In this document: piece by piece, positions 1,482 through 64,000 of the stretch
How positions within the stretch are numbered: the first letter of the stretch is position 1
Layout of the letters: every line of letters begins with the position of its first letter
Origin: Scenedesmus sp. PABB004
Taxonomy: Eukaryota
Length of the DNA: 64,000 bases
Reading direction: 5' to 3'
Assembly (NCBI GenBank): GCA_014905635.1
Contig: CM026548.1
Span: forward strand, 124,001-188,000
Made by a program: the position numbers and the translations under genes
Notes under the pieces: model-generated
Seen by the model: the letters and a program-made list of their open reading frames with translations, nothing else
What the model was told of the DNA's origin: nothing
Databases searched by the model: none

Positions 1482-3122
1482 ATGGCGGCGGCGGCCCCCG
1501 GAGCCGCGCCGGCCTCGCCCAACGGCCGCTGCGTGGCCATCATCAACCCCGCGGGTGCGCTCGCAGCTGGGGAGGCCCGGGTAGGCTAGGCAGCGGCGCA
1601 GCAGCAGCGACGCCCGACGCCTGTGCGCCGCCCTGCCCGCGCTCAGGCGCCGCTGAGCGAGCGGCGAAGCTCTGGCATCGAGTCAGGCCTATCGTGGCTC
1701 GGGAGCTGGCTGGCAAGGTTCGGCGCGCGCCCGCCGCGTGGCGGCGCGCGGCCTGCTGTGGGGCGCACGCACGGCTCGCCGCGCCAGCTGCGCCGCCTGC
1801 CGCGCGCAGCTGGAGCTGGACGAGCTACTGACGTCTGGCCCCGGCGACGCGGCGGCGCTGGCCGCGGAGGCGGCGCGGCGCGGCGCGGCGGTCGTGCTCG
1901 CGGTCGGCGGCGACGGCACGCTGCACGAGGTCGCCAACGGCCTGCTGGCCGCGGCACCGCGCAGCGGCGCGCCCCCGCCGGCGCTGGCTGTGCTGCCGAT
2001 GGGCACGGGCTGTGACTTTGCGCGCGGGATGGGCTGGGGCGCGCAGGGCGGCGAGGCGGGCGCGCTGGACGCGTGCCGGCGCATCACGGGGGCCGGCGGC
2101 AGGCGCTGGACGTCGGGCGCGTGACGCTCCGCCGCCCGCAGCAGCAGCAGCAGCAGCAGCAGCAACCGCAGCAGCCGCAGCAGCAGCAGCCGCAGCACCA
2201 GGCGCAGCCGCCGCCAGCGCCAGCGCCGCGTGCGCTGGTCACGCACTTTGTCAACGTCGCCAGCTGCGGCGCCGGCGCCGACGCGGGGACCTATGTGGGC
2301 CGCTGGAAGCGCCTGGGCGGCCTCGGTGCGCGCCACCCGCCCCGCCGACGCCGCGGCGCGCGAGCGCGGGGGCGGGCCTGGCGGCCGCAGCTGCGGACGC
2401 GCCTGCTGCGGCGCGAGCCTCGCGTCGAGCGCTCCACGGCGAGCCGCCCCCGCCGCGGCCGCGCGGCGCGCAGCGTACCACGTCGCGGCCGCGCAGGCCC
2501 TGCTGCGCTACGAGCCGATCACCGTGGAGGTGCGGCGCCGGGCGCAGGGGCGCCGCCGGCGCGCGCGCAGCTGCGCGGCGGCGCAGCGAGACGACGCGGC
2601 GTGCGCTGCCGCGCCGCGCCGGTGCCCAGGCGTCGTTCGACGGCGGCCCGCCCCGCGCGCTGGAGGCGCTGACGATCTTGGTGCTCGGCAACGGCGGCGT
2701 GTGGGGCGGCGGCATGCGCGTGCTGCCGCGCGCCGACCCGCGCGACGGGCAGCTCGACGCCGTCGCGATGCAGGGCCTGGGCCTGGCAGACTTTGTGGCC
2801 AAAGGCGCGCGGGCGCGCAGGGGTGGCGCGTCGCCCACGCGGGCGCGCCCCCGCCGTGCGCGCGCGCGCCGGCCGGCCGCCGCCCCCCCCCCCACACACA
2901 CACCCACCGCCGCACTGCCGCACCCGCGCAGGCCACCTGCTGCGCAGCGGCCGGTACGAGGGCGTGCGCGGCGTGACCCCGCTGCCGCGGTGGCGCACGC
3001 TGCGCGTGGCCGCGGCGGGCGGCGCCCCCGCGCCAAACTGGGAGCTCGACGGCGAGCTGCAGGGCCGCTGGGCGGAGGCGGAGGTGGAGGTGCTGCCCGG
3101 CGCGCTCTCGCTGTGCGTGTGA
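1482..3122 (+). CDS. YegS/BmrU-type diacylglycerol/lipid kinase family protein (6 exons, apparent 1-nt frameshift at ~2088-2092)
   Basis: Motifs [63 protein letters not shown]. Introns 1555-1646, 1718-1809, from 2326, 2530-2629 and a GC-AG intron 2805-2931. Confidence 0.88.
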
Positions 3123-3232
3123 GAGCGGCGGAGGCTCCGCCGCGGAGCGGACGGGCGCCCGTCCGCCTGCCTCGAGGCGCGCGTGCTGCGGCGGAGGCGA
3201 CGCCGGCCGTGCCGCGGAGCGCACGCCGCCAC

Positions 3233-3561
3233 CGGCGCTGCGGGCGGCGGCTGGTTCGGCGACATGCTCGGCTGCGGCGCCAACTTTGTGCGCCACAAGT
3301 AGCCGGCGGCTACTGCGCGGCGGCGTGTGCGCGCGGCGCGCGTGACCCCCCTCGCCGGCCGCGACCGCCGGCGCGGCGCGCGCGGTGTGGGAAGCTGCAG
3401 CCCGGCCGCGCACGCCGTCGTGGGCGGGCGTTTGGAGCGCACGGGCCAATTCGTGTGCAAAACCTCGCTGAACCCTGGGCCAGCCGGATCACAACGCGCG
3501 GTCGCCCGCAGCGCGCCGCCCCGCCCCCGCCACACTCCGCGCCCGCCACGCCACACGCCTC
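3233..3561 (+). repeat. Direct repeat copy 2: orphan 3' fragment of gene 1 plus the psbR upstream region
   Basis: Near-identical to 1041-1369; ends 30 nt before the psbR ATG; contains a CCAAT. Confidence 0.95.
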
Positions 3562-3591
3562 CCCGCCTCCTCGCCCCAACCGCTCGCCAAA

Positions 3592-4743: not shown

Positions 4744-5137
4744 GCGCAGCCGCGCTTCTGCAGACGCCCATGTAGCTTGTAGCTGAGCTGAGCGCGGGGG
4801 CGGCAGGCAGCGGCGGCCCGCTGCGGCCCCCGCGGGCAGACGCGGCGGCCCGCGCGCGCGCGCGCGCGCGGGCCGCGGCGCTGCCGAGTAGCGCGGCGCG
4901 CGGCGGCCCCCGCGAGGGGTCCGCGCGTGCGCGAGCGCATTTTGTGCCCGAGCCGCAGCAGACGTGCAGCGTGAGGGGAGGCGGAGTGTCGGCCGGGGAG
5001 GCGCGAGCGCGCCCGTCCCTGGGTGTCGGTCGGTCCGCCGCGCGGGCGCGCAGCAGCGGCTGCGACGCCCCGCGGCCCAGGAGGAGGAGTGCGCCCTGCA
5101 GGGGCGCCGCCGCGGCCGCGGCGTGTAGGGTTGAGCC

Positions 5138-5142
5138 TGTAA
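5138..5142 (+). terminator. Putative chlorophyte poly(A) signal TGTAA for psbR
   Basis: TGTAA about 400 nt downstream of the stop; the motif is rare in this GC-rich DNA. Confidence 0.55.
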
Positions 5143-5227
5143 ATCGAGCGTGCCCACCGGTCGGTTCGTCTGGGCAGCTGGCGGCAACAGCACACGCGCG
5201 CGCGCTCGAGCGCCCAGAGCTTAGCTC

Positions 5228-5232
5228 TTACA
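5228..5232 (-). terminator. Putative poly(A) signal TGTAA for biotin synthase
   Basis: TTACA on the + strand about 115 nt downstream of the stop. Confidence 0.55.
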
Positions 5233-5345
5233 CAGCGCCAGCTGGCCGCGCGGCGCTCCGGTCCGGCCCCTCTTGCCCTCCCCCGGCCCAAGAGCAGGCC
5301 CCCCTGCGCCGGTCGTGGCTATGATACACCGCGCCGCCCGCGGCC

Positions 5346-15361: not shown

Positions 15362-17272
15362 GCCCTCGATGATCTGCACCACGGCGTCCACGGGGTCGCC
15401 GCGCGCGATCGCCTCCTGCACGGCTTGGTGCTCCGCGCTGCGGGCGTGGCGCGGCGCGGTCAGTGTGTGCCGCCTGTCGAGCGTCACTTCCCCCCCCCCC
15501 GCCCACCCCCCCCACACACACACGCGCGCGCAAGCACACCTGTACTGCTTCAGCAGCGCGGCGGCGCGCCACACCGCCCAGCGCGTGATGTTCTGCTGCT
15601 GCGCCGCGCTGAGCTTGGTCCGGCTGCGCAGCAGGATGCGCTGCAGGTCGCTCAGGTCGGCCGTCTGGCCCATCACCTCATCGTACCGCAGCCCCTCCGC
15701 CGCGATGCCTGCGGCGGCAGCGCGTGCAGGGTGCGGCGCGCGCGTTTGCCGGGCAACGCGGCGCGGCGACGCGCGGCGCGCGCGCGGCGCGCGGGGCGCG
15801 GCGCGCCGCCGCGCCCGCACCCGCGACCGCGACGACGGAAAGCGCGTCGATCTCGGCGTCGCTCAGGTCCCGCGTGATTATGCGCGCCTGCAGCCTGCGG
15901 GCACGGCGCGGCGGCGCGGCGGCGCGGCGCGTGCGGCGCGTGCGGCACGGCGTCAGCGCGGGCCCCTTGGCTGCGCCGCGCCGCCGCCGGCCTGGACGCG
16001 CGCGCGCGGCGCCAACGCCGGCGCCGGCGCCGCCGGCCGCACGACACGCACTTGGCCTCCGCAAACTCAACGTGCTCCTTGCCGATGCCGAGGCCGTAGT
16101 TGGTCACCGGCACGCCCATGAGGTAGCCTGCGGGCGGGCGGGTGCGCGCGTGTGTGAGCGAGCGCGCGGCCAGCGCACGCAACGCGGCGCGCCGCAGCAG
16201 ACGCGGCGGGGGCGGCCCACCGAGCAGCAGGTGCGCTGCCTCGTGCGCGACGACGCGGTCGCGGTAGTCCGGAAAGACCTGGCTGAACTTGTCAATGAAG
16301 ACCTGGGCGGAAGGAGAAGGGTTCAAGGCAGAAGAGAGGCAGGGGAGCGGGACGGGCGTGGCCGGGCGGCAGGTGCGGCGGGCGCGGCGGGCGCGGCGGG
16401 CGCGGCGGGCGCGGCGCGCCCTGGGCGGCGGCGGCGGGCGCCCACCTGCAGCAGCCCTGGCGCGGTTGAGCCGATCGCCAGGACGACGAGGACGGTGCTG
16501 CCGATGAGGTAGCTGCTGAAGAATCCCCAATCGCCGGGCAGTTGCCCCGCGGCGACGGCGAGCACGCTCACCACGCCTGGTGCGGGGGTGGGCGCGGGCG
16601 CGGCGTGGGCGCGGCGTGCATGCGGGGCCGCGGCGTGGGCCGCGCGCCGCCCTGGCGGCTCACCGACGGTGGTGTAGAGGAACGCGGCGTCGTTGCGCAC
16701 GCTGCGCGGCGGCCGGGCGGGCGCGCGGCGCGGACGCGCTCGGCGCGGCGGCGGGGCGCGCAGCCTTGCGCGCGGCGCGGCGTGTGTCGCGCCTGGGCGT
16801 GGCGATGGTGTCGGGCGACTTGATACCCATCTGCTTCAGCTCGCCCATGAACACGTTGCGCCGCGCGGCGGGGCCGCCCGCGTCGCCGCCGGCCTCGTCG
16901 GGCGCCTCGGCGCCCCACTTGGGGACGAGGCCGGCCGCCTTGAGCGTGTTCATGGCGCGCAGCACGTCGGCGCTGTACTCAAACTTCTGCGGCGGCGCGC
17001 GGCGCCCGCGGCGGCGCCCGCGGTGTGGGACGCAGGCGGGCGGGCGGCTGCTGCCGCCGCGCAAGGCGCACCATGCTGGGCGGCGCCTTCTTGAAGGCCG
17101 CGCAGGACGCCTGGAGCTCGCCGAAGAGCACGGCGCGGTCGGCGGTGGCGGCGCTGCTGCTGCGCGCGGGCCCGCCGCGCTGGCGCAGCGCCGGCGCGCC
17201 GGGCGCGGCGCGCCGGCTGCAGGGAGCCGGCGGGCGCGTGCCAAACGGCGCTGGGGCGCGGAGGAGCTGCAT
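15341..17272 (-). CDS. VIR3: Chloroplast M41-like zinc metalloprotease, VIRESCENT3 homolog (9 exons)
   Basis: SVRNDAAFL, QLPGDWGFF, PDYRDRVVAHEAAH (HExxH), IGKEHV, AAEGLRYDEVMGQTADL, QQQNITRWA. One GC-AG intron at 16702-16792. Confidence 0.9.
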
Positions 17273-17608: not shown

Positions 17609-19778
17609 ATGCGGCGCGGTGCCTGCGCCCTGGCCGCCGCGGCGGCCGCGCAGCGGGCGCTGGCGGGGCAGGTCTGGGCGGCGGCGGGCGGTGCGGCGTG
17701 GCAGCAGCCGACGCGCTGCTCGCTCCACGCCGGCGCGGGCCCCGGCGGCGACGGCCCGCCCGCGGAGCTCTTCGACCGGTGCGCGGCGGGCGGCAGCCGG
17801 CGCCGCGCGCGCCGCCCGGCGGCGCCGTGCCGACGCTGCGCGCGGGGGCCCGGCCGCGCCGCCCGCGCAGGCAGCGCAAGGCGGCGCAGCGCGACCGCGC
17901 GGCGGCGCTGCGGTGCGCGCTGCACCGCCCCGACCCGCTGCTGCGGCACATCACCGAGCGCCTGCTCGACCGGCTCGAGGACTGCGTCGCGCGCTTCCCG
18001 ACCGCGCTCGTGCTCGGCGGCGCGGGCGAGGTCGTCGCGGAGGGCCTCGCCGGCGGGCGCGCCGGCGTGCGCCGCGTCATCCACATGGACACGAGCCCCG
18101 CGATGCTCGCGCTCGCGCGGGTGCGCGCCGCGCGCGCGCGCGGGGCGCGGGCGGCGCAGGCCGCGCGGCGCGCGGCGCCCCGCGCGGCGCTGGCGGCGCG
18201 TCGACGCGCCGGCGCCGCCGGCGCGCTGATGCTTCTTGCAGGAGCGCGCGGCCGAGTACGTCGCGCGGCACCCGCACAGCAGCTGGCCGGAGACCTCCTA
18301 CGTGCTCGCCGACGAGGAGCACCTCCCCCTCGCGCCGGGCAGCGTCGACCGTGAGCCCGATGCGTGGCGCCGCCGTGTGCCGCGGCGCCGCGCGCGACCG
18401 CCCGCGGCCGGACGGCGCGCGCGCCCGCCGACGGCGAACGCGCCCGCCCGCCCGCCCGCGCGCGCCGCAGTGGTGGTGAGCTGCCTGGGGCTGCACTGGG
18501 TGAACGATGTGCCGGTGAGCGCGCCGCCGCCGCGGGCCGGCCCCGCCCGCAGCGACCGGCCGCGGCGTCAGCGCCAGCGCCCGCGCCAGCGCGGCACCGT
18601 CCCTCTAGTCGGTGGCTGGCCGAAGTTGTGGCCTGCCCGCTGTAAAAGGCGACGAACAGCGAAGCAGCCCGCGGCGGCGCGCGGCCGCCTCACGGCGCCG
18701 CGCGGCGCCGCGGGGGTGTGGTGAACAGTGGTGTGCTGGCGAGGCCAGCAGCACACGGCTACAACTGCACGCACATGCCGGGGCCGGGCCGTCCGGGGGC
18801 GCGCCGCGCCGCAGCGGCCGGGCCCCGCGCCGCCGCGCCACGCGCGCTGCGCCCACCGCGCCGCGCCGCGCCGCGCCGCGCAGGGCGCGCTGGCGCAGGT
18901 GCGCCGCGCGCTCAAGCCAGACGGCCTCTTCCTGGGCGCGATGCTGGGCGGCCAGACGCTGCAGGTGCGCCCGGCGAGCCGGCCCGCGCGCGCCTCGCTC
19001 GCTCGCTCGCCGGTCGGCGCGGCGCGGCGCGGTGCGGCGCGGCACGGCATGGCGCGGCGCCGAGGCGCCCCGCCCGCGCCGCCCGGCGCGCCGCAGGAGC
19101 TGCGCATCTCCTGCAGCCTCGCGCAGCAGGAGCGCGAGGGCGGCGTGTCGCCGTTTGTCTCGCCGCTCGCGCAGGTGCGCGACGCGGGCAACCTGCTCAC
19201 GCGCGCGGCGCTCGCGCTGCCCACGGTGGACGTCGACACCTTTGTGATGCGCTACAGCGGCGCGGCCGCGCTCGTCAGCCACCTGCGGCTCATGGCCGAG
19301 GGCGCGGCGCTGCGCGTGGCGTCGCGCGGCGCGCTGCGCCGCGACACCGCGCTCGCGGCGGCAGCGGCCTACCAGGCGCTCTACTGCGACGAGGAGGAGG
19401 CGGAGGGCGACCACATCGCCGCGACGTACCAGGCGCGCGCGGCGCAGCCGCGCGCCGGCGGCGGAGCCCACTCGCAGCTCGCCGCGGCGGTCGGGCGCGG
19501 CGCGCCACCGAGACCGACCCTGCCGCCGCCGCCGCCTCTGCTTCTTCCGCTCCTGCTGCCGCGTCGTCGTGTGTCGTGCTGGCCCGCCGCAGGTCATCTT
19601 CATGACGGGGTGGTGCCCCAGCAGCAGCACGCCGCGCGCCGCGGCGCGCGGCAGCGGCACCGTGAGCTTCCAGGAGATGGCCGCCGCGCTCGCCGCGCGG
19701 GGAGCGACCGCGGGCAGCGCCGGTGGCGACGGCGAGGGCGGCGGCGAGCCGGCGGCGGGCAGCGGGGGCGGCGCCTGA
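17609..19778 (+). CDS. NDUFAF5: Mitochondrial complex I assembly factor NDUFAF5, SAM-dependent methyltransferase fold (7 exons)
   Basis: LFDR|QRKAAQRDRAA, RLLDRLEDC, DEEHLP, LGLHWVNDVP, LKPDGLF, EREGGVSPFVSP, ATYQ|VIFMTGW. GC-AG intron at 19433-19592. Confidence 0.93.
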
Positions 19779-22805: not shown

Positions 22806-23717
22806 TCACCGCCGGCGGCCCGAGCCGAGCAGCACGCCGAGCGCGACCGCCGCGACCGCGCCCGCGACGCCGAGGCCGAGCAGGCCGTCCTTGACCACGC
22901 GCTCGTCGACGTCGCCCTTGAGCGCAGCGCCCTGCCGGAAGTCAGGGTAGTCCTGCAAGCGGCGCGGCGCGGCGCGCGCGGGGTGGGGCGGGCGGCGGGC
23001 CAAGCGGGCCGCGCGGGGGCCTCGACAGCCGCCGGCGGCGCGCGGCGGCGGCGCGCGCGCCTGCAGCAGCGACGTGAGCGTGCGCCGCGCGTCGAGGCAG
23101 CGCCCGAGCTTGAACTGCGCGACTGCGCGCCGGAGCGCGGCGGCGCGGGCGGCCGCGCGTCGGCGGCCGGGCGCGCGCCGAGCGCTTGCGGCCCTGCGAG
23201 CAGCGCCCCCCCCCCCCCCCCCCGCCTGTCCTGCCCTGCACGTCCGCGTCCACGTCCACGTCCACGCACCGGCGAGGTAGTAGCGGAGCTCGCGGTCCTG
23301 GTCCTGCGTGCGCTGGTCGTTGTCCAGCGCGGCGGCCGCCAGGTCGGCGCCGCGCTGCTGGTGCGCCCGGCTGTCGGCGTGCACGAGCGCCCAGATGAGC
23401 CTGCGCGAGACGCGGGCGGCGGCAGCGGCGGCGCGGCAGCGGGGGTTGGCGACGGCCCGTGGCGGCGCGCGGCGCCGCACATGCACGCCCATGGCAGTCC
23501 CGAGCGTGCCGCCAGTCGACAGCGCGAGGCGGCAAAGCCGGGAGGACGGCCGTTCGCCGCCGCCGCCGCTGCGAGGCGTGTGCGAGGCGCGGGGCGTGCC
23601 TGCGCACCTGCACTTGGCCGCCTCGAGCTCCGATGGGCTCCCCGATTCAAACGCCGCGCTGTACTCGGCCTGGAAGGAGTGCACCTGGTCGTCGGTCGTG
23701 GCGGGCAGGCGCTCCAT
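22806..23717 (-). CDS. FIS1: Mitochondrial/peroxisomal fission protein FIS1 (4 exons)
   Basis: RLIWALVH, RELRYYLAVAQFKLG, PDFRQ...VKDGLLGLG, tail anchor ending GRRR. GC-AG intron at 22953-23060. Confidence 0.93.
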   Translation of the reverse strand: MERLPATTDDQVHSFQAEYSAAFESGSPSELEAAKCRCAGTPRASHTPRSGGGGERPSSRLCRLALSTGGTLGTAMGVHVRRRAPPRAVANPRCRAAAAAARVSRRLIWALVHADSRAHQQRGADLAAAALDNDQRTQDQDRELRYYLAGAWTWTWTRTCRAGQAGGGGGGAARRAASARRAPGRRRAAARAAALRRAVAQFKLGRCLDARRTLTSLLQARAPPPRAAGGCRGPRAARLARRPPHPARAAPRRLQDYPDFRQGAALKGDVDERVVKDGLLGLGVAGAVAAVALGVLLGSGRRR

Positions 23718-24450: not shown

Positions 24451-24760
24451 GTGTCGGCCCCGCTGGCAGCTCAGACTGCTGCCGCCAATCTCTTGAATGC
24501 AAGAGACGGTGAGGGCGCGCTCTCTGCGGGACGATTGATGTCTAGAGTAGTCGCCGAAGCCTCAAAACAGCGGCCGCCGGACTGCCGCCGTGCGCGCCAG
24601 CCGCAAAACCAGGCGGCGGCACGCCCCGCGCACGCCCCACAACTGTACGAGCCAGCCACGGCGCTGCGCCGCGGCCACGCCGCAGGGATTGCCCGCAGCC
24701 CGCCGCTCGCCGCCGCTGCTCGCCGCCGGCCGCTGGCCGCCGCCGCGACAGCAGCGCGCC

Positions 24761-30057: not shown

Positions 30058-30112
<55 letters not shown>

Positions 30113-33516: not shown

Positions 33517-36500
33517 TCACGCGCGCGCCGGCGCCGCCGCCGGCTTGGGCGCCGGCGGCGTGGCGAACGTCGCGAGGTACGCGTGCGCCGCCTTGACCTC
33601 GGCGCGCCGCTTGGAGCCGCCCCACTTGAGCTCCGCCGCCATGAGCTCCGCGACCTGCGCGCGGGGCCGCACCCGCCGCGGGCGCAGCGCCACGTGGGCG
33701 CGAGCGCGGCGCGCGGCGCGCGGCGCGCCCTCCCTCCCTCCCTCCGCGCGCCGCGCCCGCCCTCCCTCCCGCCGGCGCACCCGCGGCACCGCCGCCTGCG
33801 CGGCCTTGGCGTCCAGGAAGGCGAGGCGCGTGCGGCGCGCGAGGAAGTCGGTCACGCTCACGCAGTACTCCTGCCTGCGAGCCGCCAGGCCCGCCCCGGC
33901 ACAGCACGGCGCGCGTGGGACGCCGCGCTGCGCCGCCGCCAAGCCGCCGCCGCGGGCGCGCGCCGCCCCGCGCCGCGTGCGCGCGCGCTGCGCGGCGGGT
34001 GCTGCCGCCGCTGCTGCCGCTGTGACGCGCCCACCTGCACGCGTGCAGCACCTCTGCCTCAAGGTAGGGGTGCCCCTGCACCAGCAGCCCGCCCAGCTTC
34101 TCCGCCGCGGCGAGCGCGAGCACCTTTGGCGCCTGGTCGCCGTACGCGGCCGCGAGGTGCCGCGCGACCGGCGGGCTCGCGGCGGCGCTGCCCGGCAGCA
34201 GGCCGCTCGCCTGCTGCGCGACCTGCGGCGCCGCCGGTGGCGGCGGTGCGGCGCGCGTCAGCGCGACGCGGCGGCTCGCCACGCGGCGGCGCCCCGCCCC
34301 GGCGCCCCGCCGCCGCGCGCGCCGCCGCGTCACCTGCGCGGTCAGCGTGTTCGTGAAGCCGCGCGCGCCCAGCAGGCGCAGGTTGGGCGTCGCGCACTGG
34401 TGCGCCACGCTGAGCTTGCCCGTGGCGAGCGCGGCGTCGACCGCGTCCTGCGCCATGCGGCGGTACGTCGTCCACTTGCCGCCTGCGGCGCGGGGCGACG
34501 CGCGGAGGCGGAGTGCGGCGCGGAGGGGCCCGGCGCGTCAGCGCACCAGCGAGCGAGCGCGGCGGCGGGAGAGGCGGCGACGGGCCGGGGCGCTGCCCGC
34601 GTGTCGCACCGGTGATGGTGATGAGGCCGTTGGGCTCGCTGAAGATGACGTGGTCCCGGCTGATGCCCGCCGTGGCGCCGCCGGCGCCGGCGGTCGGGTC
34701 GGCCGCGAGCGGGCGGATGCCGCTCCACGTCGACAGCACGTCCTCGCGGCGCACCTGGCGGCGCGGCGCGCGCGGTCGCGCGGGTCGGCGGCGGCCGCGC
34801 GGGCGCGCCGCCGCCGCCGTCGCCCCGCGGCCCGCCGACTGACGCCCCCGGCGCTCCAGCCCCTCGAGCCCCTCCTGTCCTGTCTTACCCCCCTGCCCTG
34901 CACCCCTCCCTTAAACCCCGCTCCCCTGAACCCCCTCCCCTGAACCCTAACCACCCACGCACCGTGATGGCCAGGTAGTCGGCGATCGCGTCCAGTATGA
35001 ACGCCACGTCAGCGCCGCTCGCCGACGGCGCGTCGAGCACGCCGCACGGCGCGTCGGTCGTGCCCGCGATGACCGCGCCCTGGAAGGGCAGCAGGAACAC
35101 GACGCGCCCGTCCTGCGCGCGCACGCGGCGGTGGGCGCGGCGCGGCGGCGGCGTCGGCGCACGGCGCGCGGCGCACGTGGCAGCACCCCCCCCCTCCCCT
35201 GCCCCCCGCGCCGCGCCGCGCCGCGCCGCGCCGCGCCGCGCCGCGCCTTGGTCTTGGGCACGATCAGGCCGGTCCCCGCCGCGCCGTACCACTCGGGCAG
35301 GGTGACGTGCGCGCCGCTGCTCGCCGTGACCGCCGGCGCCGCGTTGGGCTCACCCAGGCGGCGCACGCTGTCCACGTATGGGCCTGCCGCGGCGGCAGGG
35401 GTGGCGCGGCCGGGGTGGCGCGGCGCGTGGGCGTGGGCGCGGCAGGCCCTGGCCCTCCCGCGGCGGCCGCCCCGGGGCGGCGCTGCGCCGCCGCGCGCGG
35501 CGCGCGCACCCGCGGCGTTGATGACGACCCGGGCGTGCACGTCAAACTTGCGCCCCGACTGCTTGTCGCGGCAGTGCGCGCCGACGACCTGCCCCGCCGC
35601 GTCCTGCAAGCGCGCGCGCGCGAACGCGGCGGCGGCGGCGGGGGGGCTCGGCGGGCGGCGCCCCCCGGGCCGCCTGCTGGCGCTGCCGCGGGCGTGCGGC
35701 GCGCCGCCGCACCCGGATGAGGCCGGTGGCCTCCACGTAGTTTGCGACCGCCGCGCCCGCCGCCGCGGCGGTGGTCGCGAGCGCCACGTTGAGCCGCGCG
35801 TCGTCAAAGGCGCCGTCATAATACAGAATCTGACGCGCCACCGCCGCGGCGGACGGCAGGCGGGCGGCAGGCAGGGAGGGAGGGAGGCGCGTCGCCGGGG
35901 GTGCGCGGCGGCCGCGGTGGCGGCGGGCCACGCGCGCTGCGCGGCGCGGGGCTGGCGCGCACCGCGCCCTTGAGGCTCGCGCCGCCGGGGCTGGCCTCCG
36001 CGAGCGTGGGCAGACGGCGCAGCGACTCGGCGGGCGGGAGGTACCTGCTCATTGCCAGGTTGCGACCCACTGGCGCACGGCACGGCACGGGTGGCGCGGG
36101 GCGGCGCGGCAGGCGGGTGGGCGCGCGTCGAGGCGGCGGGGGCGGAAGGGAGGGGGCGGCCGCGCGGCACTGCTGCGCTGGTAGCAGTAGAGCTGCGCGT
36201 CGGCGCCGCGGCAGCAGCAGCGGCGCTCACGCGCGACGAGGTCGTACGCCTTGAGCCCCGCCCAGTAGAAGGGGACCTCCCACCACTTGAAGCAGGGCAT
36301 GAGGATGGGCAGCGTGGACGTGAGGTGCGGCGCGTTGTCCAGCAGCGCGCGCCGCTCCTGCGGGGCGCGGCGCAGCGCGGGCGGCGGCGCAGCGCGCGCG
36401 GTCGGCCGCCTGCGCCGCGCGTCGCGCGCAGCGCGCGGCGCCCGTTGTCGCTGCCGCCGCGCCTGCAGGGCCTCGTAGACGAGCTTGAGCTGGCCCAGGT

Positions 36501-45796: not shown

Positions 45797-47765
45797 ATGG
45801 CGACGTCTTCCTCGGACAGCGGGCTGTCCTTTGTCGCGCGCCGGACGAGCTCGCTTGTCCTGGGCCTGCTGGAGCCCAGCTTCATGCGGGCGCAGCAGAG
45901 CTTCGCGGGGTGCTTGGGACTCGCCGCTGGGGGCGGCAGCGGCCCTTCTTCGCGCAGCACCAGTGCCGCCGACTGCGCGGCGGCGCGGCCGCGGCGGGAC
46001 GAGCGCGGGCGACCGCTGCCCATCCGCGGCGGCGTCGGCGGCGGCGACCCGAGCGTCCGGGGCGTCGCCCGGCTGGCCGGCTACGCGCTCGCCGCGGCCG
46101 CGTACCTGGCGGCGCTCGCGACGCTCGGCGCCGGTCACTCGCGCTGGCTGAGCTGGTGCCTGCTGCTTGGCGAGCTCGTCGCCGCGCTGCGCGTGGTGCA
46201 CCACTGCCTCCACTTTGTGCGGCGGCCGCAGCACTACGTGCCGCAGTCGGAGCTGCTGTGCCACAATCACTACACCTTCCACGTGGTCATCGTCATCCCC
46301 TGCTACAACGAGCCGCTCGCCCTCGTCGCGCCGACCGTGCTCGCCGCCGCCGCCGCGGCGCTGCCGCCGGGCTGCACGCGCGAGCTCTGGCTCTGCGACG
46401 ACGGCCAGGTGCGCCGCCGCACGGCGCACGGCGCGGCGCGGCGCGGGGCGGGGGCCGGCCGCGCCGCGCCGCCGGCACGTGGCCGGGTCTGACCGGGGCG
46501 CGCGCGGTCGCCGCAGGACCCCGCCAAGGCCGCGTGGGTGGCGGGCCTCGCGCTGCCGGACTGCCCCGCGCGCTACTCGTCCGGCCGGCCCAAGGCCCCG
46601 TGCCGCAACGGCAAGTCGTGCAACATGAACTGGGCCCTGACGCAGGCGATCTACCCACACTATCCCGCCCAGGACGTGCCCAACCACCACGTGCTCACCT
46701 TCTTCGACGCCGACCAGGCGCGGCGCGGCGCGGCGCGGCGCGGCGCCAGGCTGGGCCGGGCCGGGCCGGGGCCGCCCAGCCGGCGCCGCGGCGCGGCGCG
46801 GCGACGGCCCGCACAGGCGCCCTGCCCAGGCGGCCCGCCGACCCCCCCCCCCCCTCCGCGCGCGCCGCAGGTGTGCGAGCCCGACTTTTTCCTGCTCACG
46901 CTGCCGTACCTGGTCTCCGCGCGCGACGCGCTGGTGCAGTGCCCGCAGGTGCGCCGGCGCGCGCCCCGCGCGCGCGCGCGCGCGCGCCCCGCGCGACGCG
47001 CCGCTGCCTCCTCACCTCGACACCCCGCCCCCGCGCGGCCCAACCCCTGAGCACACAGAGCTTTGTGAACTACTGGTCCGACGCGGACGTGCTGGACCAC
47101 AGCGCGCGGCTCAAGTGGGTCTGTCGAGACGGCATGGTCCGCCGCCTCGGCGGCCTGCACTGCAACGGCAGCGGCCTCGTCGTGCGCGCGCGGTGAGCGG
47201 CGCGCCTCAGCACCGCGCTCGCACGCCGGCGCCACGCGCGCGCGCGGGACGCACGCTCACGCGCTGGCACTCGCGCGCTGGCACCCGCCGCCAGGGCGCT
47301 CGCGCGCATTGGGTGGTGGCCTGACTGGACTGTGTGCGAGGACAACATGATGGCCATGCTCCTGCAGCGCCGCGGGTACCGCGGATACTTTGTCAATGCG
47401 CGCGTCGCGACCGGCCAGGCACGCACGCGGCGCACGCACGCGGCGCACGACGCAGGCCTGGTGCCGGCGCCGCGCGCCTGCCCGCGCGGCGCCGCGACGC
47501 GCGGTGGGAGAGGGCTGAGCGCCGCGCCGCGCCGCGCCGCGCCGCGCCGCGCAGGTGCCCGAGACGGTCGCGGACAGCTTTGAGCAGCGCGGGCGGTTCA
47601 TCAAGGGCTACATCACCAACACCCTGGGCCGGCGCGGCATGTGCTGGGACGGCGCGCAGCCGCGCCTGCTGCGGCTGCTGGGCAACGCGCTCACGCGGGA
47701 CCTCTACATCGTCGCCGTGCCCCTGCTGCTGCTGCCGCCGGCGCTGGGGCTGCTCGTGGCGCCGC

Positions 47766-51892: not shown

Positions 51893-52092
51893 TCAGGCCG
51901 GCAGCGGCTGGTGCACCTGCTGCTGCGGCAGGAACTGAGGGGGACCGCCGGCCGGCAGGGCGGCGATGGGAACGCTGGCCCACGCGCCCGGCGCCGCCGC
52001 CGGCGCCTGCGGCGGCTGCAGCGGCGGCAGGCCGTACCCGACCGCTGCCGCCTGCTGCGCTGCCGCCTGCTGTGCTGCCGCCGCTGCCTGCG

Positions 52093-52127
<35 letters not shown>

Positions 52128-54103
52128 AGCGCAAACTGCTGCAGCTGCGCGTGCTGCTGCGGCTGGTGCAGCATGGTCTGCTGCATTGCCGCCTGCAGCT
52201 GCTGCTGCTGGTGGTGCTGCTGGTGGTGCTGGTTCGCCTGCATCTGCAGGCCCCGCCCGCCCAGCGGCATGGGGCACGGGCCTGGCGGCACGCGCGGCCC
52301 GCCGCCGCCGCCGTCGCCTGCCGGCCCCGCGCCGGCGCCGGCCGCCGCCGCGGGGGCGCCGAGCGCCTGCGCGGCGCGCAGGTCGTCAAACCAGGGGTGC
52401 TTGAGCGCCTGGCCCGCGGTGATGCGCGCCTCCGGGTTGTACGCCAGCAGCCCCGCCAGCAGGTCGAGGCCCGCCGCGTCGCCCGCCAGGCGCGGCGCGA
52501 GCTGCGCCCAGGGCTTGGGCGCCCAGCGGGGGAAGTTGGTCCGGTAGTGCGCCAGCCGCTCCACGCCCGCCCACACGTGGTCGGTCGGCGTGCCGAGCGC
52601 CTCAAACACCTGCGCACCGGCGGCGGCGGACGCGGCCAGCGCCACACGGCCAGTGGGCGCGCCGCGCCGCTGCGCCGCGTGCACGCCGTCCCGCGGCCTC
52701 GTCCGCCGCCGCCGCCGCCGCTGCCAAAGCTGCCGCCGCTGCGCTGCGCCGCGCTGCGCCGCCGGCGCGCGCCTTGTGCAGCAGTCCGATCTCGCTCTCC
52801 GCGCGGAAGAGCGGCTCGCGGTTGAGCATCTCCGCAAAGATGCAGCCGACGCTCCAGAGGTCGATCGCGGCGGAGTAGCTGCTCACGCCGAGCAGCAGCT
52901 CCGGCGCGCGGTACCAGAGCGTGACGACCTTGTCGGTGTAGGCCTTGAACGGCGGCAGGAAGCTGCGCGCGAGGCCAAAGTCGGCGACCTTGACGCGCGC
53001 GCGGCTCGCGTCGACGAGCACGTTCTGGGGCTTGAGGTCGCGGTGCATCACGCAGCGCATGTGCGCGTGGTGCACGGCGAGCAGGATCTGGTGCAGGTAC
53101 GACTGCGTGCGGGCGCGCGCGGCGCGCGGCGTGAGGCGCGTGAGGCGCGTGCGGCGCCGCAGGCAGCGGGACGGCCGGCCGCCGACCGCCGCCCGCCGGC
53201 GCGGCGCGCGGCGCACCTTGATCTGCCACAGCTCCAGCAGCTTCTCGCCGTCGAGCAGGTCGCGCAGGTCGCAGTCGAGGCACTCGAGCACGACGTAGAC
53301 GTTGTTGGTGCCAAAGCCGTAGATGATGTCCTTCAGCCTGCACGGCGCGCGGCGCGCGGTGGGCGCGCGGCGCGCGGTGAGCGCGCTGCGGCGCCGCGGC
53401 GGCCCCGGCCCCAGCGGCGGCGCGCGCACTCGACGATGTTGGCGTGCCGCAGCTCCTTGAGCAGCGAGATCTCCCGCAGCGTCGAGGAGGGCAGGCCCTG
53501 CTCGTCAAAGCCGAAGCGCAGCTTCTTCAGCGCGATGACCTCGTCCGTCTCGCGGTTGCGTGCCTTGTACACCACGGCGTAGCTGCCGCTGCCCAGCTCC
53601 TGCAGCCGCTCGTAGCGGTACTTCTGCGCGCGCGCCGGGCGTGCCCGGGGCCTGGGCGCGCGCGGCGCGGGCGCCAACCCCCGGCTGCAAGCGGCGGGCG
53701 GGCCCGTTCGCGCCGAGGCGGGCGCGGCGCCGGCCGCCGCGGCGCCCCCGGCCGGCGATCGCTGCGGGGGTGCTCCTGCGCGCGGCGCGGGCACCTGGAG
53801 GAGCAGGGAGAAGGAGCCGAGGTCCACCGACCCGCCAAAGCCGTGCTCGCTCCAACCAAACTGCTGCAGGATGCCCAGCAGCGCGCCCTTGGCGTCGTAC
53901 TTGAGCGCCTCCCTGATGAACGGGCCCAGCAGCTCGTCCGCGGCGCGGGCATCGATCGATGGGAGCTTGAGCCGCCTGATTTGCTCCAGCAGCGACTGCA
54001 GCGGGCTGGCGCGCTGATCCGGCGCACGGCCCCGCTTGCGGCTGGCATCGGCGCTCGGGCTGGGCGTGGCGCGCTTGCTGGCGGGCCCGCCCTGGAGCTG
54101 CAT
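51893..54103 (-). CDS. Cyclin-dependent kinase with a PSSTLRE motif, ~100-aa N-terminal extension and Q-rich tail (5 exons)
   Basis: LGSGSYAVVYKA, IALKK, GLPSSTLREISLLKEL, HRDLKPQN, DFGLAR, YTDKVVTLWYRAPE. GC-AG intron at 52610-52772. Confidence 0.93.
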
Positions 54104-55664: not shown

Positions 55665-55695
55665 AACCCTGCCCGATCGCGCCGCTGACTGCAGC

Positions 55696-55700
55696 TGTAA
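55696..55700 (+). terminator. Putative poly(A) signal TGTAA for folB
   Basis: About 30 nt after the stop. Confidence 0.45.
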
Positions 55701-57036: not shown

Positions 57037-60000
57037 TCAGAAGAAGGGGCTCGGCCTGCCGAGCCGGCCGCCGCCCTGGCCGCCGTTCTGAAACACAAAG
57101 CCGCCGCCGCCCGGCATGCCGTCCAGGCCGGGCGCGCCGCCCAGGCCGCCCGGCCCGCCGCCCAGGCCGCCGGGCCCCCCAGGCCCTGCAGCACCTGCTG
57201 GCCGTCCAGGCCCGCGAGCCCGCCGCCCTTGGGCGTGGCGGCGCCGCCGCCGCCAAAGCCGCCGAGCGGTCCGCCATAGGTGAGGCCCGGCGGGTCGGCG
57301 CCGCCGCCGCCGCCGGCGCCGCCGCCCTCCACGCTGCCGACGCTCGCGGGGCCGCGGAAGCCGCCAAAGGCGCCGCCGCCGAGCAGGCCGCCGCCGCCGA
57401 GGCCGCCCGGGGCGCCGCCGCCGCCGCCGCCGCCGCTGGCGCCGCCGTCGCCAATGACGCCCATGCCGAGGCTGAAGCCGCCCAGCGCGGGCAGCGAGGG
57501 GTCCATGGCGCTGCGGCCGAGGCTGTTGGCGCCGAGGCCGCCCAGGCCGGTCGAGCCGGACGACGGCGGCCCCGACGCGCCAAAGCCGCCGCCGCCGCCG
57601 CCGCCACCGCCGCCCGGGAAGAGCGCGCCGACGCCGCCCTGGCCGCCGGGCAGCGGGCCGCTGCCGCCGCTGAGGCGCGGCTGCTGCGCCAGCAGGCCGC
57701 CGCCGTCCAACATGCCGGGCTGCTGCTGCGGCGGCGGCGTGCCCTGGCCCTGCTGCATGAAGAGCTGCTGGCCCTGCTGCCCGAGCTGGCCGAGCGTGGG
57801 CTGCGGCGGGCCGTGCTGGGGCGGCTGGCCCTGCTGCTGCCCGAGCAGCCCGCCCTGCAGCTGCTGCACCATGGCGGCCGAGAGCGCCATGCCGCCGCCG
57901 CCGAGGCCCTGCTGCTGCGGCATCTGCATCTGCATGCCGCCGCCCGAGAGCGCCAGCCCCTGGCTGAGCGCGAGCAGCTGCTGGTGCTGCTGGTGCAGGG
58001 CGTGCTGGGCCTGCTGCTGCTGCTGCGCCTGCTGCTGCTGCTGCATGCCCTGCAGCTGCATGAGCATGTCCTGCTGCGCCGCCGAGACCGCGGGGTGGCC
58101 AAACTGCTGCTCCATGAAGCCGCCCTGCTGCTGCGCCGCGAGCTGTGCCTGCTGCGCGGCGGCCTGCTGCTGGAGCTGCTGCAGCTGCTGCTGCTGCTGG
58201 TACTGCAGCTGCTGCTGCGCCTGCTGCGCCTGCAGCTGCTGCTGCAGCGCCGCGGCCTGCGCCTGCGCCTGCTGCTGCGCCTGCAGCTGCGCCTGCAGCT
58301 GCGCCTGCTGCTGCTGCGCCTGCTGCTGCTGCAGCTGCGCCTGCAGCTGCTGCTGCATCGCCTGCTGCTGCATCTTCTGGCGCTGCAGCTGCATGGCCGA
58401 CGACTGCGCGCCGCCGTAGAACTGCGCCGCGCCGCCGCCCTGGCCCGCGGGCAGCAGCTCTCCGTTGGGGCCGAGCATGAAGACGCCCTGGCTGGTCTGG
58501 ATCGTCTGCATGGGCTGCTGCGCCTGCGCCTGCGCCTGCTGCTGCGCCTGCTGGAACTGCGCAAACTGCTGCTGCTGCGCCGCCTGCTGCTGCTGCTGCG
58601 CCTGCAGCTGCTGCTGCTGCTGCTGCTGCAGCGCAAACTGCTGCAGCTGCATGTGCTGCTGCTGCGGCTGCTGCTGCAGCATCGCCTGCTGGAACGCGGG
58701 CTGCTGCGCCATGACCTGCTGCTGCTGGCGCTCCGGGACGAGCACCTGGCGCCCGTCGGCGGTCGTGAGCAGCACCATGCCGCCCTGCCCGGCGCCGCCG
58801 GGCGCGCCGAGCCCGCCGCCGCCCTGCACCTGCATGGGCATGCCCTGGAGCACCACCATCTGCTGCTGCTGCCCGCCGGGCCGCACCATCTGCTGCTGCG
58901 GCGAGGGCTGCTGCTGCTGCTGCTGCACGATCACGTAGCCCGGCGGCGCGACGAGCTGCTGCGCGCCCATCGCGGGCCGCGCCCCCTGCTGCTGCATCAT
59001 GAGCCCGCCGGGCGTGACAAACTGCAGCCCGCCGGCGGGCCGCGGCCCGCCGAGGCCCGGCTGGCCAACCAGCTGGTACGGCTGCCCGCCGCCGCCCGGC
59101 GCGGCGCGCACGATCTGGCCGTGCTGGTTGACCAGCACGCTGCCCGGGGGCAGCTCCAGGAGCTCCCCGCCGGGGCCGTAGCCCGCGCGGGGGCGCACAC
59201 CGGGCACCGTCGGCCGCATGCCCGCGCCCACGCCGGCGGGCAGGAACATCGGCCGCCCCGCGACGCCGGGCACCAGGCCCGGCCGCCCCGCGGGCCCGCG
59301 CGGGAACGCGCCGGGGAAGCCCTGCGAGGCGGCCATGGCGTACACGGGCGACATGCCGCCGCTGCCGGGGCCGATGGGCATGTGGCCCATGCCGGGCACC
59401 AGCCCGCCGCTCGCGGCGTGGCCGGGCATGAGCCCCAGCCCCGGCTGCCCGGGGCGCAGCTGCAGCAGCGCGTCGCCCGCGCCCGCGGCGCCGGCCGCCG
59501 CCGCGGGCGCGGGCGCGCCGGGCGCGGCGCCGCGGCCGGCCGCGGCGAGCTTGATCACGAGCCGCACCAGCTTCCGCTCCTCGGCCGGCGGCGGCGGCGG
59601 TGCGGGCGTGATGCGCAGCCGCACGCGCACGTCGGGCACGACCGGCTCCGGCGCCAGCGGCGTGAGGCGCAGCCGCACGGCGGGCTCGCCGTCGGGGCCG
59701 GCGGCCACCTCGAGCGCCGCGGCGAGCAGGCGCTGGGGCGGGGCCGCGTCAAAGACCTCGAGCGCCACGCGCAGCAGCGGCGGGTCCTCCAGCACGAGCT
59801 GGACGCTCAGCGGCTGCGCCGCGGCGCCGGCGCCGGCCGCGGCCTGCGGGGCGGCGCGGGCGGTGGTCGGCGCGCGCGCGCGGGCGGGCGCGCGTGCCAG
59901 CTGCGTCGGCGTGCCGCGCCGCCGCGCGGCGCAGCGGCGCGCCTGCAGCGCCGCGTGGTGCAGCCGGAAGGTGTCGGTGAACGCCTCGGCGCCCGCCAGC

Positions 60001-60953: not shown

Positions 60954-61781
60954 CGCGCCGATCGCGCAGCCGCGCGCGCAGGCGGCGCCCAGGCTCCTGC
61001 TCGGCGCGGGGGCGGCGCGCATGGACGGCGCGGGCGGGCGGGCGGGGGCGGGCGGCGGCATGGGACCCAGCGAGCAGCAGCGCCCAGCGAGCCGCCGCAG
61101 CGCCCACGGCTGCTCCGGCGCGGACGTGACCCTCACGGCGCCGGGGCGCGCGGCGCCACGCCACGCCGCGCCGCGTGCGCGCGGGGCCGCCGCGCACCTC
61201 GTGAAGGGTGCTGCTCCGGCCGAGCCTAGCGCCCGCCCATGCCCGGGCCGGGCGTGGGGTGATGATCAGCGCCGCCGAGACGCGCCCGCGCCACGCGCCG
61301 CTGCGGCCGGCCGGCCGGGGGCGCTGCCGCTGCCTCCGCTGCCTCCTCGGCCGCCCCGAGGCGACGCAGCGTCTTCGGGGGGCCCTGAACCTCCGGGCCG
61401 CCGCGATGTGGCGTGATGGGCGCCGGCGGGCCTTGAGGCGCGCGGCCAGCGGGCAGGGCGGCAGGCACGGCGGGGTCCAATCAACCGCCCGCGGCCCCGC
61501 GCGCGCCCGCGCCACGCTCGTCGGCAGGCCCGCGCACCGCAGCACCGCCGCCGCCGCGTGCGCAGCGATCAGGCCGCGCAGCCAACAACAGCGCCGCCGC
61601 GTTCGAGCGCGCAGCGCCGCCGTCGCCGCGGAGCGCACCGCACAGCGGGCAGGCGGCAAGCTTGCCCCACACACCCGCCCGCGGGGCTTGGCCAGCGGGC
61701 CCCGCCGCCGGGCCGCCGCGGCGGGCGCGCCGCGCCCAGCGGCGGTCGCGCGCCCGCGCTGCTGCTCGCGTCGCGGGCGCG

Positions 61782-61933
61782 ATGGACGGCGCGGGCGAGC
61801 AGCCGCAGGCCAAGCGCCAGCGCCTGGCCGACGGAGAGGGCGAGCCACAGGCGCCCGGCGGCGCCGGCGACGGCGCGGGCGCAGCGGCCGAGGGCGGCGC
61901 GCAGCCGGCGGCGGCAGGCGCGCCGTCGGAGCT

Positions 61934-61966
<33 letters not shown>

Positions 61967-64000
61967 GCAGCAGCAACCAACGGACCAGCAGCAGCAGCAG
62001 CAGCAGCAGGAGCGGCCAGCGGGCCAGCAGGAGCCCCAGCCGCCGCAGCCGCCGCAGCCGGTGCCGACGTGGCGCACGCCTCAGGCGGGCCTCGCGCCCG
62101 CGCCCGCGGGCGGCACCGTCGGCGCGTACTCTCAGCGCGAGGACCACCTAATGCGCCAGGAGGCGGCGGGGGACATCGAGTTTGCGTACGTCCTCAACGA
62201 CGGCAGCCCCACCAACATGATGCGGTGCGGCGCGGCGGCGCGCGGCGCGGCGCGGCGCGGCGCGGGCGGGGCCCGCCGCGCCCGCGGCGGCGGCCCGCGC
62301 GACGCCCGCCTTGACGACGCGCGCGCCCGCGCGCGCGCCCGCCCGCGGCGGGGCAGGCTGATGGGCCTGAAGGGCATCTTCAGCAAGCAGCTGCCCAACA
62401 TGCCGCGCGAGTACATCTGCCGCCTGCTGCTCAACCGCCGGCACCGCTCGTGCGCGCTCGTGTCGCGCGGCGGCACCGTGCTCGGCGGCATCACGTGGCG
62501 CGTCTTCGCGCAGCAGGTGCGGCGCACCTGCCCGCGGCGCGGCCCCGGCGCGGCGCGCGGCGCGCGGCGCGCGCGTCGGTGCTCGCGCCGCCCCGGCATG
62601 CACGCCGGCGCCGCCGGGGCCGCCCCCACACACGCGCACCCCCGCCCCCCCCCCCCACCACCACCACCACCTCCCTCTCCCCGCCGGCCCCGCGCAGGGC
62701 TTTGGCGAGATCGCGTTCTGCGCCGTCGCGGCGAGCCAGCAGGTGCGGGGGTTTGGCACGCGGCTGATGAACGCGACCAAGGCCCTCGCGCGCGACGTGG
62801 ACGGCCTGCACTTCTTCCTCACCTACGCCGACAACAACGCGGTCGGCTACTTTGCAAAGCAGGCGCGCACGGAGAGGGGACCGCGGCGCGCGGGGAGGAC
62901 CACGGCCGCGGCGCGGCGCGGCGCGGGGCGGACCACGGCCGCGGCCGCGGCGCGGCACGCGGCGCGCGCGCGCGCGCGCGCGCGCGCGGCGCAGGGCGTG
63001 TGGGGCGCGGCGGCGCGTGGCGCGGCGGCGCGTCGCGGGGCGCGGCGGCGCGACAGGCCGGCGGCCGCCGCCGCCGCGCGCGCGTGTGGCAGGGCTTTAC
63101 GCGCGAGATCACGCTGCGGCGCGAGGCGTGGCTGGGGTACATCAAGGACTATGACGGCGGCACGCTCATGGAGTGCGTGATCCACCCCAAGGTCCCCTAC
63201 GCCGACCTGGTCAGCCTCTTCAAGGCGAGGCGGACAAGGCGCCGGCGCGGGCGCGCGGCCGGACAGCGCGGGCGCGGGCGCGGGCGGCCGGGCAGCGCGG
63301 CGGGCGGTGTGGCGGGCCTCCGGCGCGCCGCCGGATGCTGACGCGTGCCGTGTGCCGCTGTGCCTGCAGGTCCAGCGGGACTACCTGGACGGCCAGATCC
63401 GGCAGTACAGCAACAGGCGCGGGGAGAGGGGCCGGGCGGGCGCACGCCGCTGGCAGCGCGGGCGCGTCGGCGCCGCCCGTCCGCGTGCCCCCGCGCACGC
63501 CCGCCCGCCCGCCCGCCCGCCGCCGCGCGCAGCCACGTGGTGCACGCCGGCATCGTGCGCGCGCGCCAGCCGCTCGGCCCGCCGCCGCATGCGCGGCACG
63601 CCGACATGGCCGTGCCGCTCGACCCGCTCGCGCTGCCGGGCGTCAAGGAGGCCGGCTGGACGCCGCCGGGGCAGCCCGGGTGCGGCGCGCGCGGCGCCGG
63701 TCGCGGCGCCTTGGTCCGGCGGCGGCGGCGCCGCAGGGGGCGGGGCAGCGGGGCTGCCCCCCCCCCCCACCCACACTCGCCCCGCCCACCCCGCGCCTCT
63801 GCCGTCCAGGTACCGCCTGGTGCTGCGCGACCACAGCGTCGTCGAGCCGACCCCCGCGCACCTGCACACCTACATGGGCGGTGCGCGCCGCCGCTGCGCC
63901 GCGTGTGCCCCGCCGCCTACGCACGCCGCCGCCGCCAACGCGCCGCCGCCGCCGCCGCCGCACACGCACCGCCGCCCGCGCGCTCCGCCGCCGCCGCGCT
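61782..64000 (+). CDS. GCN5: Histone acetyltransferase GCN5/HAG1 (3' end, including the expected bromodomain, outside window)
   Basis: [28 protein letters not shown]...[51 protein letters not shown]. Three GC-AG introns. Confidence 0.96.

Follow-up and report, generated by a model that had tools for sequence, protein, structure and literature searches.

The question raised by the 64,000-nucleotide (nt) stretch of Scenedesmus sp. PABB004 studied here (contig CM026548.1, positions 124,001 to 188,000 of the forward strand; hereafter the window) is whether its genes really carry introns that begin with GC instead of GT at a share far above the usual one and, if they do, whether the recognition of 5' splice sites has to be different in order to use them. 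A sequence-only reading of the window had called thirteen such GC donors by hand, each after an exonic AG, and had suggested that recognition of the 5' splice site has adapted to extreme GC content, possibly through variant U1/U6 small nuclear RNAs (snRNAs) or through greater reliance on exon-end pairing. We consider it likely that these are ordinary U2-type GC-AG introns of an extremely GC-rich chlorophycean nuclear genome, that they originated under GC pressure, and that the splicing machinery is unchanged. The thirteen introns are given below in window positions; the vertical bar of the donor sequences is written as a slash and marks the exon-intron boundary.

2805..2931, plus strand: GC-AG intron of 127 nt in a DAGK/YegS-like kinase gene; donor AAG/GCGCGC, acceptor GCAG/G; ab initio support only.
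16702..16792, minus strand: GC-AG intron of 91 nt in the gene of a membrane protein with a HEAAH motif; donor CAG/GCGCGA; ab initio support only.
19433..19592, plus strand: GC-AG intron of 160 nt in an NDUFAF5-like methyltransferase gene; donor CAG/GCGCGC; forced by homology.
22953..23060, minus strand: GC-AG intron of 108 nt, in-frame, in the Fis1 gene; donor CAG/GCGCGC; partial homology.
35113..35246, minus strand: GC-AG intron of 134 nt in the gene of mitochondrial glycerol-3-phosphate dehydrogenase (SDP6); donor AAG/GCGCGG; forced by homology.
36358..36462, minus strand: GC-AG intron of 105 nt, in-frame, in the SDP6 gene; donor CAG/GCGCGG; forced by homology.
46718..46870, plus strand: GC-AG intron of 153 nt, in-frame, in a GT2 glycosyltransferase gene; donor CAG/GCGCGG; forced by homology.
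47419..47554, plus strand: GC-AG intron of 136 nt in the same GT2 glycosyltransferase gene; donor CAG/GCACGC; forced by homology.
52610..52772, minus strand: GC-AG intron of 163 nt in a CDK-like kinase gene; donor AAG/GCGCGC; forced by homology.
59844..59942, minus strand: GC-AG intron of 99 nt, in-frame, in the gene of a large Q-rich protein; donor CAG/GCGCGC; called "probable" by the sequence-only reading; ab initio support only.
62863..63092, plus strand: GC-AG intron of 230 nt in the GCN5 histone acetyltransferase gene; donor CAG/GCGCGC; forced by homology.
63225..63369, plus strand: GC-AG intron of 145 nt in the GCN5 gene; donor AAG/GCGAGG; forced by homology.
63417..63532, plus strand: GC-AG intron of 116 nt, phase 2, in the GCN5 gene; donor CAG/GCGCGG; forced by homology.

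All 13 introns begin with GC and end with AG, as verified by a script and by printing the sequence context, and the AG acceptor paired with each donor lies 91-230 nt downstream. The exonic AG followed by GC was found at 13/13 sites, and GCGCG occupies +1 to +5 at 11/13, the exceptions being 47419 (GCACG) and 63225 (GCGAG). The U12-type donor motif is G(T/C)ATCC (PMC1557818); ATCC at +3 to +6 was found in 0/13 donor contexts.

The existence of the introns was assessed by aligning homologues from other species to the window with tblastn, or by comparing the exons with solved structures. In an initial homologue search with a whole read-through open reading frame (ORF), low-complexity words dominated and gave 3 matches among 8,000 candidates; later searches were restricted to regions. 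The claim that joining conserved exons needs a GC donor was borne out by homologues at 9 of the 13 sites (19433, 35246, 36462, 46718, 47419, 52772, 62863, 63225 and 63417), where homologous proteins cross the junction gap-free and only a GC-AG intron fits. The junction can be slid by at most a few bases at these nine sites, and no GT, nor any other G-N..AG pair, arises from doing so. At all 13 sites the nearest GT that keeps the frame changes at least 4 residues, and neither 23060 nor 52772 has such a GT within 45 nt.

In the SDP6 gene, the orthologues P0002 and P0003 read PKTK/DGRVVF gap-free over 35246, where a GT-only gene model picks a GT inside the exon and thereby deletes 5 conserved residues. 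The same two orthologues read YEALQ/ERR over 36462, with a 35-residue gap that coincides exactly with the intron. GT sites within the exons lie at 35261 and 36480, close to these two donors. The deposited SDP6 protein of Scenedesmus sp. PABB004 (P0001), which matches the window with 100% identity over several exons, already has both GC-AG introns in its model; therefore the annotation pipeline permitted GC donors. In the GCN5 gene, GYFxKQ/GFT(R/K)E is gap-free over 62863 in 5/5 homologues. P0006, which we judged from its name to be transcript-derived, and P0008 both read DLVxxx(R/K)/(I/V)QKEYLD without a gap over 63225, and (L/Y)SN-S-HVVH over 63417, where the serine codon is split as AG/C and the sole GT alternative deletes 4 residues. 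The upstream exon at 52772 of the CDK-like kinase aligns to residues 107-213 of CDK1 (7nj0_B) and two further residues bring it to 215; the downstream exon begins at residue 216. In the NDUFAF5-like gene, ATYQ/V(I/M)(F/Y)M(T/A)GW is gap-free over 19433 in 6/6 homologues tested, and the GT at 19490 chosen by the hidden Markov model (HMM) gene finder described below adds 19 non-homologous residues.

Both GT2 sites are also fixed by homologues. P0251 and P0261 each cross the intron at 46718 within one high-scoring segment pair (HSP): P0251 has a single 51-residue gap exactly over the 153-nt intron (DAD-Q/VCEPDFF), and P0261 reads DAD/MVCKQDFF joined to the same exon, with its gaps scattered in the intron read-through. 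Ten more HSPs stop at 46717. At 47419 the HSPs of P0269, P0312 and P0329 break off at 47421-47427 and start again at 47552 with no jump in the residue numbers of the query, giving G(E/Q)(A/V)PE, a motif into which the GT at 47461 would put 14 extra residues. We also observed that, at 47038-47760 (plus strand), the GT2 homologues P0392 and P0302 align to frames that read through the introns and not to the spliced product; both proteins may themselves be predictions left unspliced in other GC-rich genomes.

The remaining four sites are less constrained. At 23060 the upstream Fis1 exon ends with LLQ, the alignment of the downstream exon to human Fis1 (1pc2_A) starts right after the LLQ of that protein, and the coordinates of the Pfam family Fis1_TPR_C agree with the GC-AG junction; the homology support is partial because the 3' end of the intron also encodes LQ. 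At 2805 the upstream exon matches positions 51-98 of the Pfam family YegS_C; no Pfam match was obtained for the downstream exon in the single-exon scan, no homologue was found across the junction, and PDB searches with both DAGK exons gave no usable match. The nearest GT alternative there adds 6 codons and is a poor site (GGG/GTGGCG). The exons flanking 16792 and 59942 gave no Pfam match in the same kind of scan, nor did the analysis yield a homologue across either junction. The nearest GT alternative at 16792 removes 9 codons; at 59942 the 60 nt on either side look coding, unlike the interior. The introns at 2805, 16792 and 59942 are thus given here as ab initio predictions only.

In order to estimate how frequent these introns are, we used as denominator the 121 GT introns of the HMM, after dropping the two misplaced ones, plus the 13 GC introns, i.e. 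134. The share of about 11% in the sequence-only reading compares well with the 13/134 = 9.7% (95% confidence interval 5.3-16%) obtained here; with the denominator of that reading the value is 13/115 = 11.3%, and counting homology-forced sites only gives a floor of 9/134 = 6.7%. Against an expectation of 1.2%, binomial p ranges over all these estimates from 4e-5, which is the value for the floor, to 2e-9. As far as predicted gene structures go, this confirms that the GC-AG introns exist, that their boundaries are GC-AG, and that their share is far above 1%.

The two classes of donor sites were then compared position by position, with the following counts.

Position -3: C or A in 13/13 GC donors.
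Position -2, A: 46/121 GT donors and 13/13 GC donors.
Position -1, G: 96/121 GT donors and 13/13 GC donors.
Position +3, G: 115/121 GT donors and 12/13 GC donors.
Position +4, C: 82/121 GT donors and 12/13 GC donors.
Position +5, G: 104/121 GT donors and 13/13 GC donors.
Position +6, C: 68/121 GT donors and 7/13 GC donors.
Position +4, A: 21/121 GT donors and 1/13 GC donors.
Position +6, T: 14/121 GT donors and 0/13 GC donors.

It had been stated that the GC donors lack the +4A/+6T match to U1 and that GT donors of the window are mostly GTGCG. Both statements hold, the latter with 67/121; the GT donors here are mostly without +4A/+6T as well, so that this feature does not set GC donors apart. 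The proposed reliance on the exon end is well reflected in the data: AG stands at -2/-1 in 13/13 GC donors versus 39/121 GT donors (Fisher p = 1.6e-6), and in 9/9 of the homology-forced subset (p = 7.6e-5), whose selection is independent of AG. The median donor score excluding +1/+2 is 3.95 for GC and 2.39 for GT donors (p = 2.8e-5), and the acceptor score is 3.55 for GC introns versus 2.53 for GT introns (p = 0.006). Intron lengths do not differ (median 134 nt for GC and 127 nt for GT). The local donor consensus is (C/A)AG/GYGCG and GC donors fit it better than GT donors do; they are the sites that match it best and do not form a separate class. A better match at the remaining positions is the classic signature of compensation. 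For animals and Arabidopsis, the U1 mismatch at +2 of U2-type GC-AG introns is reported to be offset by better other positions (PMC1557818).

The tie to extreme GC content was also upheld. The GC content is 76-81% in all 16 4-kb bins of the window (about 79%), which contains no ambiguous bases (N), and the C/T ratio of intron interiors is 4.76. At +2 the ratio is 13/121 = 0.107, a factor of 0.023 relative to intron interiors; it is far below the interior value and therefore selection for T is still strong. For land plants, GC-AG and GT-AG introns are reported at 1.2% and 98.7%, with a mean genome GC of 36.3% (PMC6310983). Assuming strand symmetry, the C/T ratio there would be about 0.57, so that +2C carries a penalty factor of 0.021. 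Multiplying 0.021 by 4.76 predicts 9.2% GC-AG introns, to roughly a factor of two, and 9.7% was observed. By this estimate +2C would be penalized in the window about as strongly as in land plants, and no change of the machinery appears to be needed.

The mechanism that we propose would then be as follows. GC-biased substitution pressure would drive the +2 T of 5' splice sites to C, and the C would persist only where all other positions already fit (C/A)AG/GYGCG. Pairing with U1 at -2, -1, +1 and +5, plus wobble at +3, would suffice despite the mismatch at +2, and a stronger acceptor may assist the GC-donor sites. The outcome would be about 10% GC-AG introns in the window with an unmodified splicing machinery. 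For Scenedesmus sp. PABB004 we infer both that mutation is the cause and that the snRNAs are normal. The earlier interpretation is supported in part: the data agree with GC pressure and with a dependence on the exon end, but lend no support to a variant U1/U6 snRNA, which also looks unnecessary.

Several points weigh against this reading. The use of the GC sites in splicing is predicted from DNA alone. Weak or no homology support is available for 4/13 of the GC introns. The denominator is approximate, as it comes from an error-prone HMM, which placed no fewer than 3 donors wrongly (at 19490, at 47461 and in SDP6), and it may include spurious introns; the rate describes one 64-kb window that need not represent the genome. 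The penalty arithmetic is rough, with genome-average GC standing in for the neutral composition of plants. Furthermore, other GC-rich algae exceed the same compositional prediction 2- to 15-fold, and therefore GC content alone does not set the rate across lineages.

A comparison with known systems shows where the present case stands. The GC-AG shares of Aureococcus (39.6%), Micromonas pusilla (22.2%) and Chlorella sp. (7.7%) were tied to high G+C by Iwata & Gotoh 2011 (PMC3033335). In a 2024 preprint, strains of Aureococcus have 14-17% and Pelagomonas about 14%, which is attributed there to GC content (10.1101/2024.10.30.620910), and genome GC has been described as weakly correlated with splice-site GC in general (PMC7072748). 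Like Aureococcus anophagefferens, M. pusilla CCMP1545 and Chlorella sp., two of which are green, Scenedesmus sp. PABB004 has a GC-rich algal nuclear genome; in the window, its U2-type GC-AG introns also exceed 1% by far and keep AG as the acceptor. The GC content differs, being about 79% here versus 65.9-69.5% in those algae, and the share of about 10% in the window is below those of M. pusilla and of Aureococcus by either estimate, and near that of Chlorella. Abundant GC-AG introns in GC-rich algae were thus already published in 2011 (PMC3033335), and the Scenedesmus case adds to a known pattern. Its distinction is modest: the most extreme GC content, yet a GC-AG share no higher than the compositional expectation. 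Judging mostly from search listings, no publication was found that states how frequent GC-AG introns are in Scenedesmaceae or Sphaeropleales.

Emiliania huxleyi, with 65% GC, is reported to have GC at 56% of 241 curated junctions, 9 of them confirmed by reverse transcription PCR (PMC4028052). As in the present case, the shift from GT to GC was blamed there on high GC, the acceptor is canonical, and GC was called only where obligatory. The Emiliania share is far beyond composition, whereas the GC donors here, known from sequence alone, are a minority of about 10% at the best-matching sites. U2-type GC-AG introns of animals and plants make up about 0.4-1.2% (PMC1557818; PMC6310983). The introns of the window resemble these in that the +2 mismatch is compensated, no U12-type motif is present, and the lengths are GT-like; they differ in a frequency about 8- to 25-fold higher and in the consensus, which is AG/GYGCG(C) and not AG/GYAAGT.

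Among the alternatives to ordinary U2-type introns under GC pressure, the one that survives best is an adapted machinery, in which the U1 5' end, the U6 ACAGAGA box or U5 loop I matches GYGCGC so that GC donors are nearly equal to GT donors. The local consensus does depart from GTAAGT, with C predominating at +4 and +6 of GT donors and GC donors behaving likewise. However, near equality of GC and GT would bring C:T at +2 toward the neutral 4.76:1, and 13:121 was seen. GC donors demand a perfect remaining consensus, as ordinary U1-dependent sites do (PMC1557818), and the land-plant penalty applied to the local intron composition already gives nearly the observed share. In addition, Aureococcus and Micromonas pusilla, which have more GC-AG introns, have the canonical U1 5' end AUACUUACCUG according to the same 2011 study, in which the putative U1 RNAs of Aureococcus, M. 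pusilla and Micromonas RCC299 carry the consensus 5' end (PMC3033335). We therefore regard this explanation as unlikely. Retuned 5' splice-site recognition in a wider sense, in which GYGCGC instead of GURAGU would be read by a protein factor or by a variant of U1, U6 or U5, appears quite unlikely as well. If it were true, snRNAs and splice sites would have co-evolved in the most GC-rich class of eukaryotic genomes to give both the GC-AG share and the +4C/+6C consensus, and passive mutation pressure alone would not account for them. A scan of the window with Rfam families at the gathering threshold gave 0 matches, and no snRNA gene was found there. Regarding GT-to-GC shifts in orthologous introns, no intron-bearing GCN5 was present among the best 80 GCN5-encoding metagenome loci; each gave one uninterrupted match of about 360-390 residues and is intronless and picoalga-like, as expected for marine picoalgae, and these loci were set aside.

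The second alternative is a calling artefact: AG/GC is easy to find at 79% GC, so that most of the thirteen could be GT introns or unspliced in-frame insertions and the true rate would be about 1-3%. Over-calling was controlled for with a small purpose-built HMM gene finder, in which coding sequence is modelled by 3-periodic Markov states, introns have states of their own, and the opposite strand is represented by shadow states. Free training on any G-N donor ran to 211 GC, 19 GG and 94 GT donors of 326 introns; this version was rejected as an estimator, and its behavior means that ab initio calling alone is untrustworthy. A GT-only version gave 140 introns with the consensus AG/GTGCG and replaced both SDP6 GC donors by in-exon GTs, deleting conserved residues. 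As an internal control with decoys, a donor matrix learned exclusively from GT sites was combined with one equal penalty for GC, GG and GA donors. At -5 nats, 17 GC, 4 GG, 0 GA and 125 GT donors were obtained; at -8 nats, 11 GC (10 of them claimed), 0 GG, 0 GA and 130 GT. The decoys thus disappear at penalties that leave 10-11 GC donors. All of 2805, 16792, 59942 and 23060 were retained at -8 nats, 59942 also at -12 nats, and 23060 and 52772 even at -15 nats. The claimed sites missed by the HMM, 19433 and 47419, are those at which homology overrules a cheap in-frame GT (19490 and 47461, respectively).

The pentamer GCGCG is indeed common, with 2,922 occurrences on both strands of the window, but AG precedes just 57 of these and 11 of the 57 are claimed donors. 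Further in favor of an artefact, 4/13 GC introns are in-frame and stop-free, and the unclaimed HMM GC donor at 2071 proved artefactual. Against an artefact, nine junctions are fixed independently by homologues of other species, and the floor of 6.7% that they set is by itself well above the usual rate (p = 4e-5 vs 1.2%). We consider it very unlikely that the calls are mostly artefactual.

The donor at 2071 survives -12 nats and was rejected, as the frame changes by one base near 2098-2102, which points to a 1-nt indel and not to an intron. In this DAGK/YegS-like gene (2062-2112, plus strand) the frame of 2041 passes into the frame of 2100; both flanking frames look family-like, which suggests either a 1-nt assembly indel or a real frameshift. 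The 10-nt direct repeat GCGCTGGACG, with copies 41 nt apart, lies at the frame break, across which the HMM had placed a spurious GC-AG intron of 71 nt. The further GC donors of the HMM that had not been claimed (17208, 22341, 24845, 37277 and 54847) are located in termini that are not conserved, have weak flanks, and were left uncounted.

The last alternative holds that the real donors are GU, the C at +2 having arisen in sequencing or assembly or being converted to U by RNA editing. It can draw on the probable 1-nt frameshift near 2098-2102, which shows that the assembly is not error-free, but is extremely improbable, since 13 independent T-to-C errors would be needed, all at +2 of the sites with the strongest flanking consensus, and we know of no error mode that hits only +2 of splice sites, nor, to our knowledge, is nuclear pre-mRNA C-to-U editing at splice sites established in green algae.

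With ordinary GC-AG introns under GC pressure as the preferred reading, a genome of about 79% GC is an extreme test of such pressure on the most conserved dinucleotide of introns. If a penalty similar to that of land plants holds genome-wide, "passive" cases would be separable from those of Emiliania, Aureococcus and M. pusilla, where GC-AG is far above the compositional expectation. Gene finders restricted to GT would damage about 1 in 10 introns here. A separate annotation matter concerns SDP6: at 34223-34333 (minus strand), P0001 retains a 111-nt in-frame, stop-free GT-AG intron (GCAG/GTGACG at the donor and CGCAG/GTC at the acceptor). It adds 37 Arg/Ala-rich residues that the orthologue P0002 is without, and is probably an annotation error.

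Introns of this kind are common in the window. Among the HMM GT introns, 36/121 (about 30%) are a multiple of 3 in length and stop-free on read-through; the corresponding number for GC introns is 4 of the 11 claimed ones in the HMM set, or 4/13 of all, by length. Stop codons are scarce at 79% GC, which explains the many in-frame stop-free introns, and missed introns are therefore invisible to ORF-based checks. Lengths of 3n were found in 53/121 GT introns, above the expected one third; this could be an HMM bias.

The gene content was surveyed by scanning Pfam on 132 six-frame ORFs picked by codon-position GC periodicity. The matches correspond to a dense nuclear gene set of a photosynthetic organism of the green lineage. 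The recognized genes include PsbR, biotin synthase, SLAC1, Fis1, TRM13 and ArfGAP, and further mitochondrial glycerol-3-phosphate dehydrogenase, IscA, an MFS transporter, the CDK-like kinase, FolB and GCN5. A comparative paper lists a genome under the name Scenedesmus sp. PABB004 at 39.8 Mb and 78.5% GC (PMC12571836). Among the homologues are proteins of lower-GC relatives, namely Scenedesmus sp. NREL 46B-D3 and Tetradesmus obliquus with about 57% GC and Raphidocelis with 71.5%.

At 24551-26569 (plus strand), a Pfam zf-U11-48K match (E = 3.4e-6) adjoins zf-TRM13_CCCH, upstream of the TRM13 methyltransferase domain. We take this match to be the CHHC zinc finger of TRM13 itself and not a minor-spliceosome protein; it is uninformative on U12 splicing. 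Long polyglutamine and Q/A-rich low-complexity runs (CAG/GCN repeats) were seen at 57195-59843 (minus strand), 25533-26915 (plus), 27395-31447 (minus) and 51917-52609 (minus), and sit within conserved genes, e.g. in the TRM13 methyltransferase domain and at the C-terminus of the CDK-like kinase.

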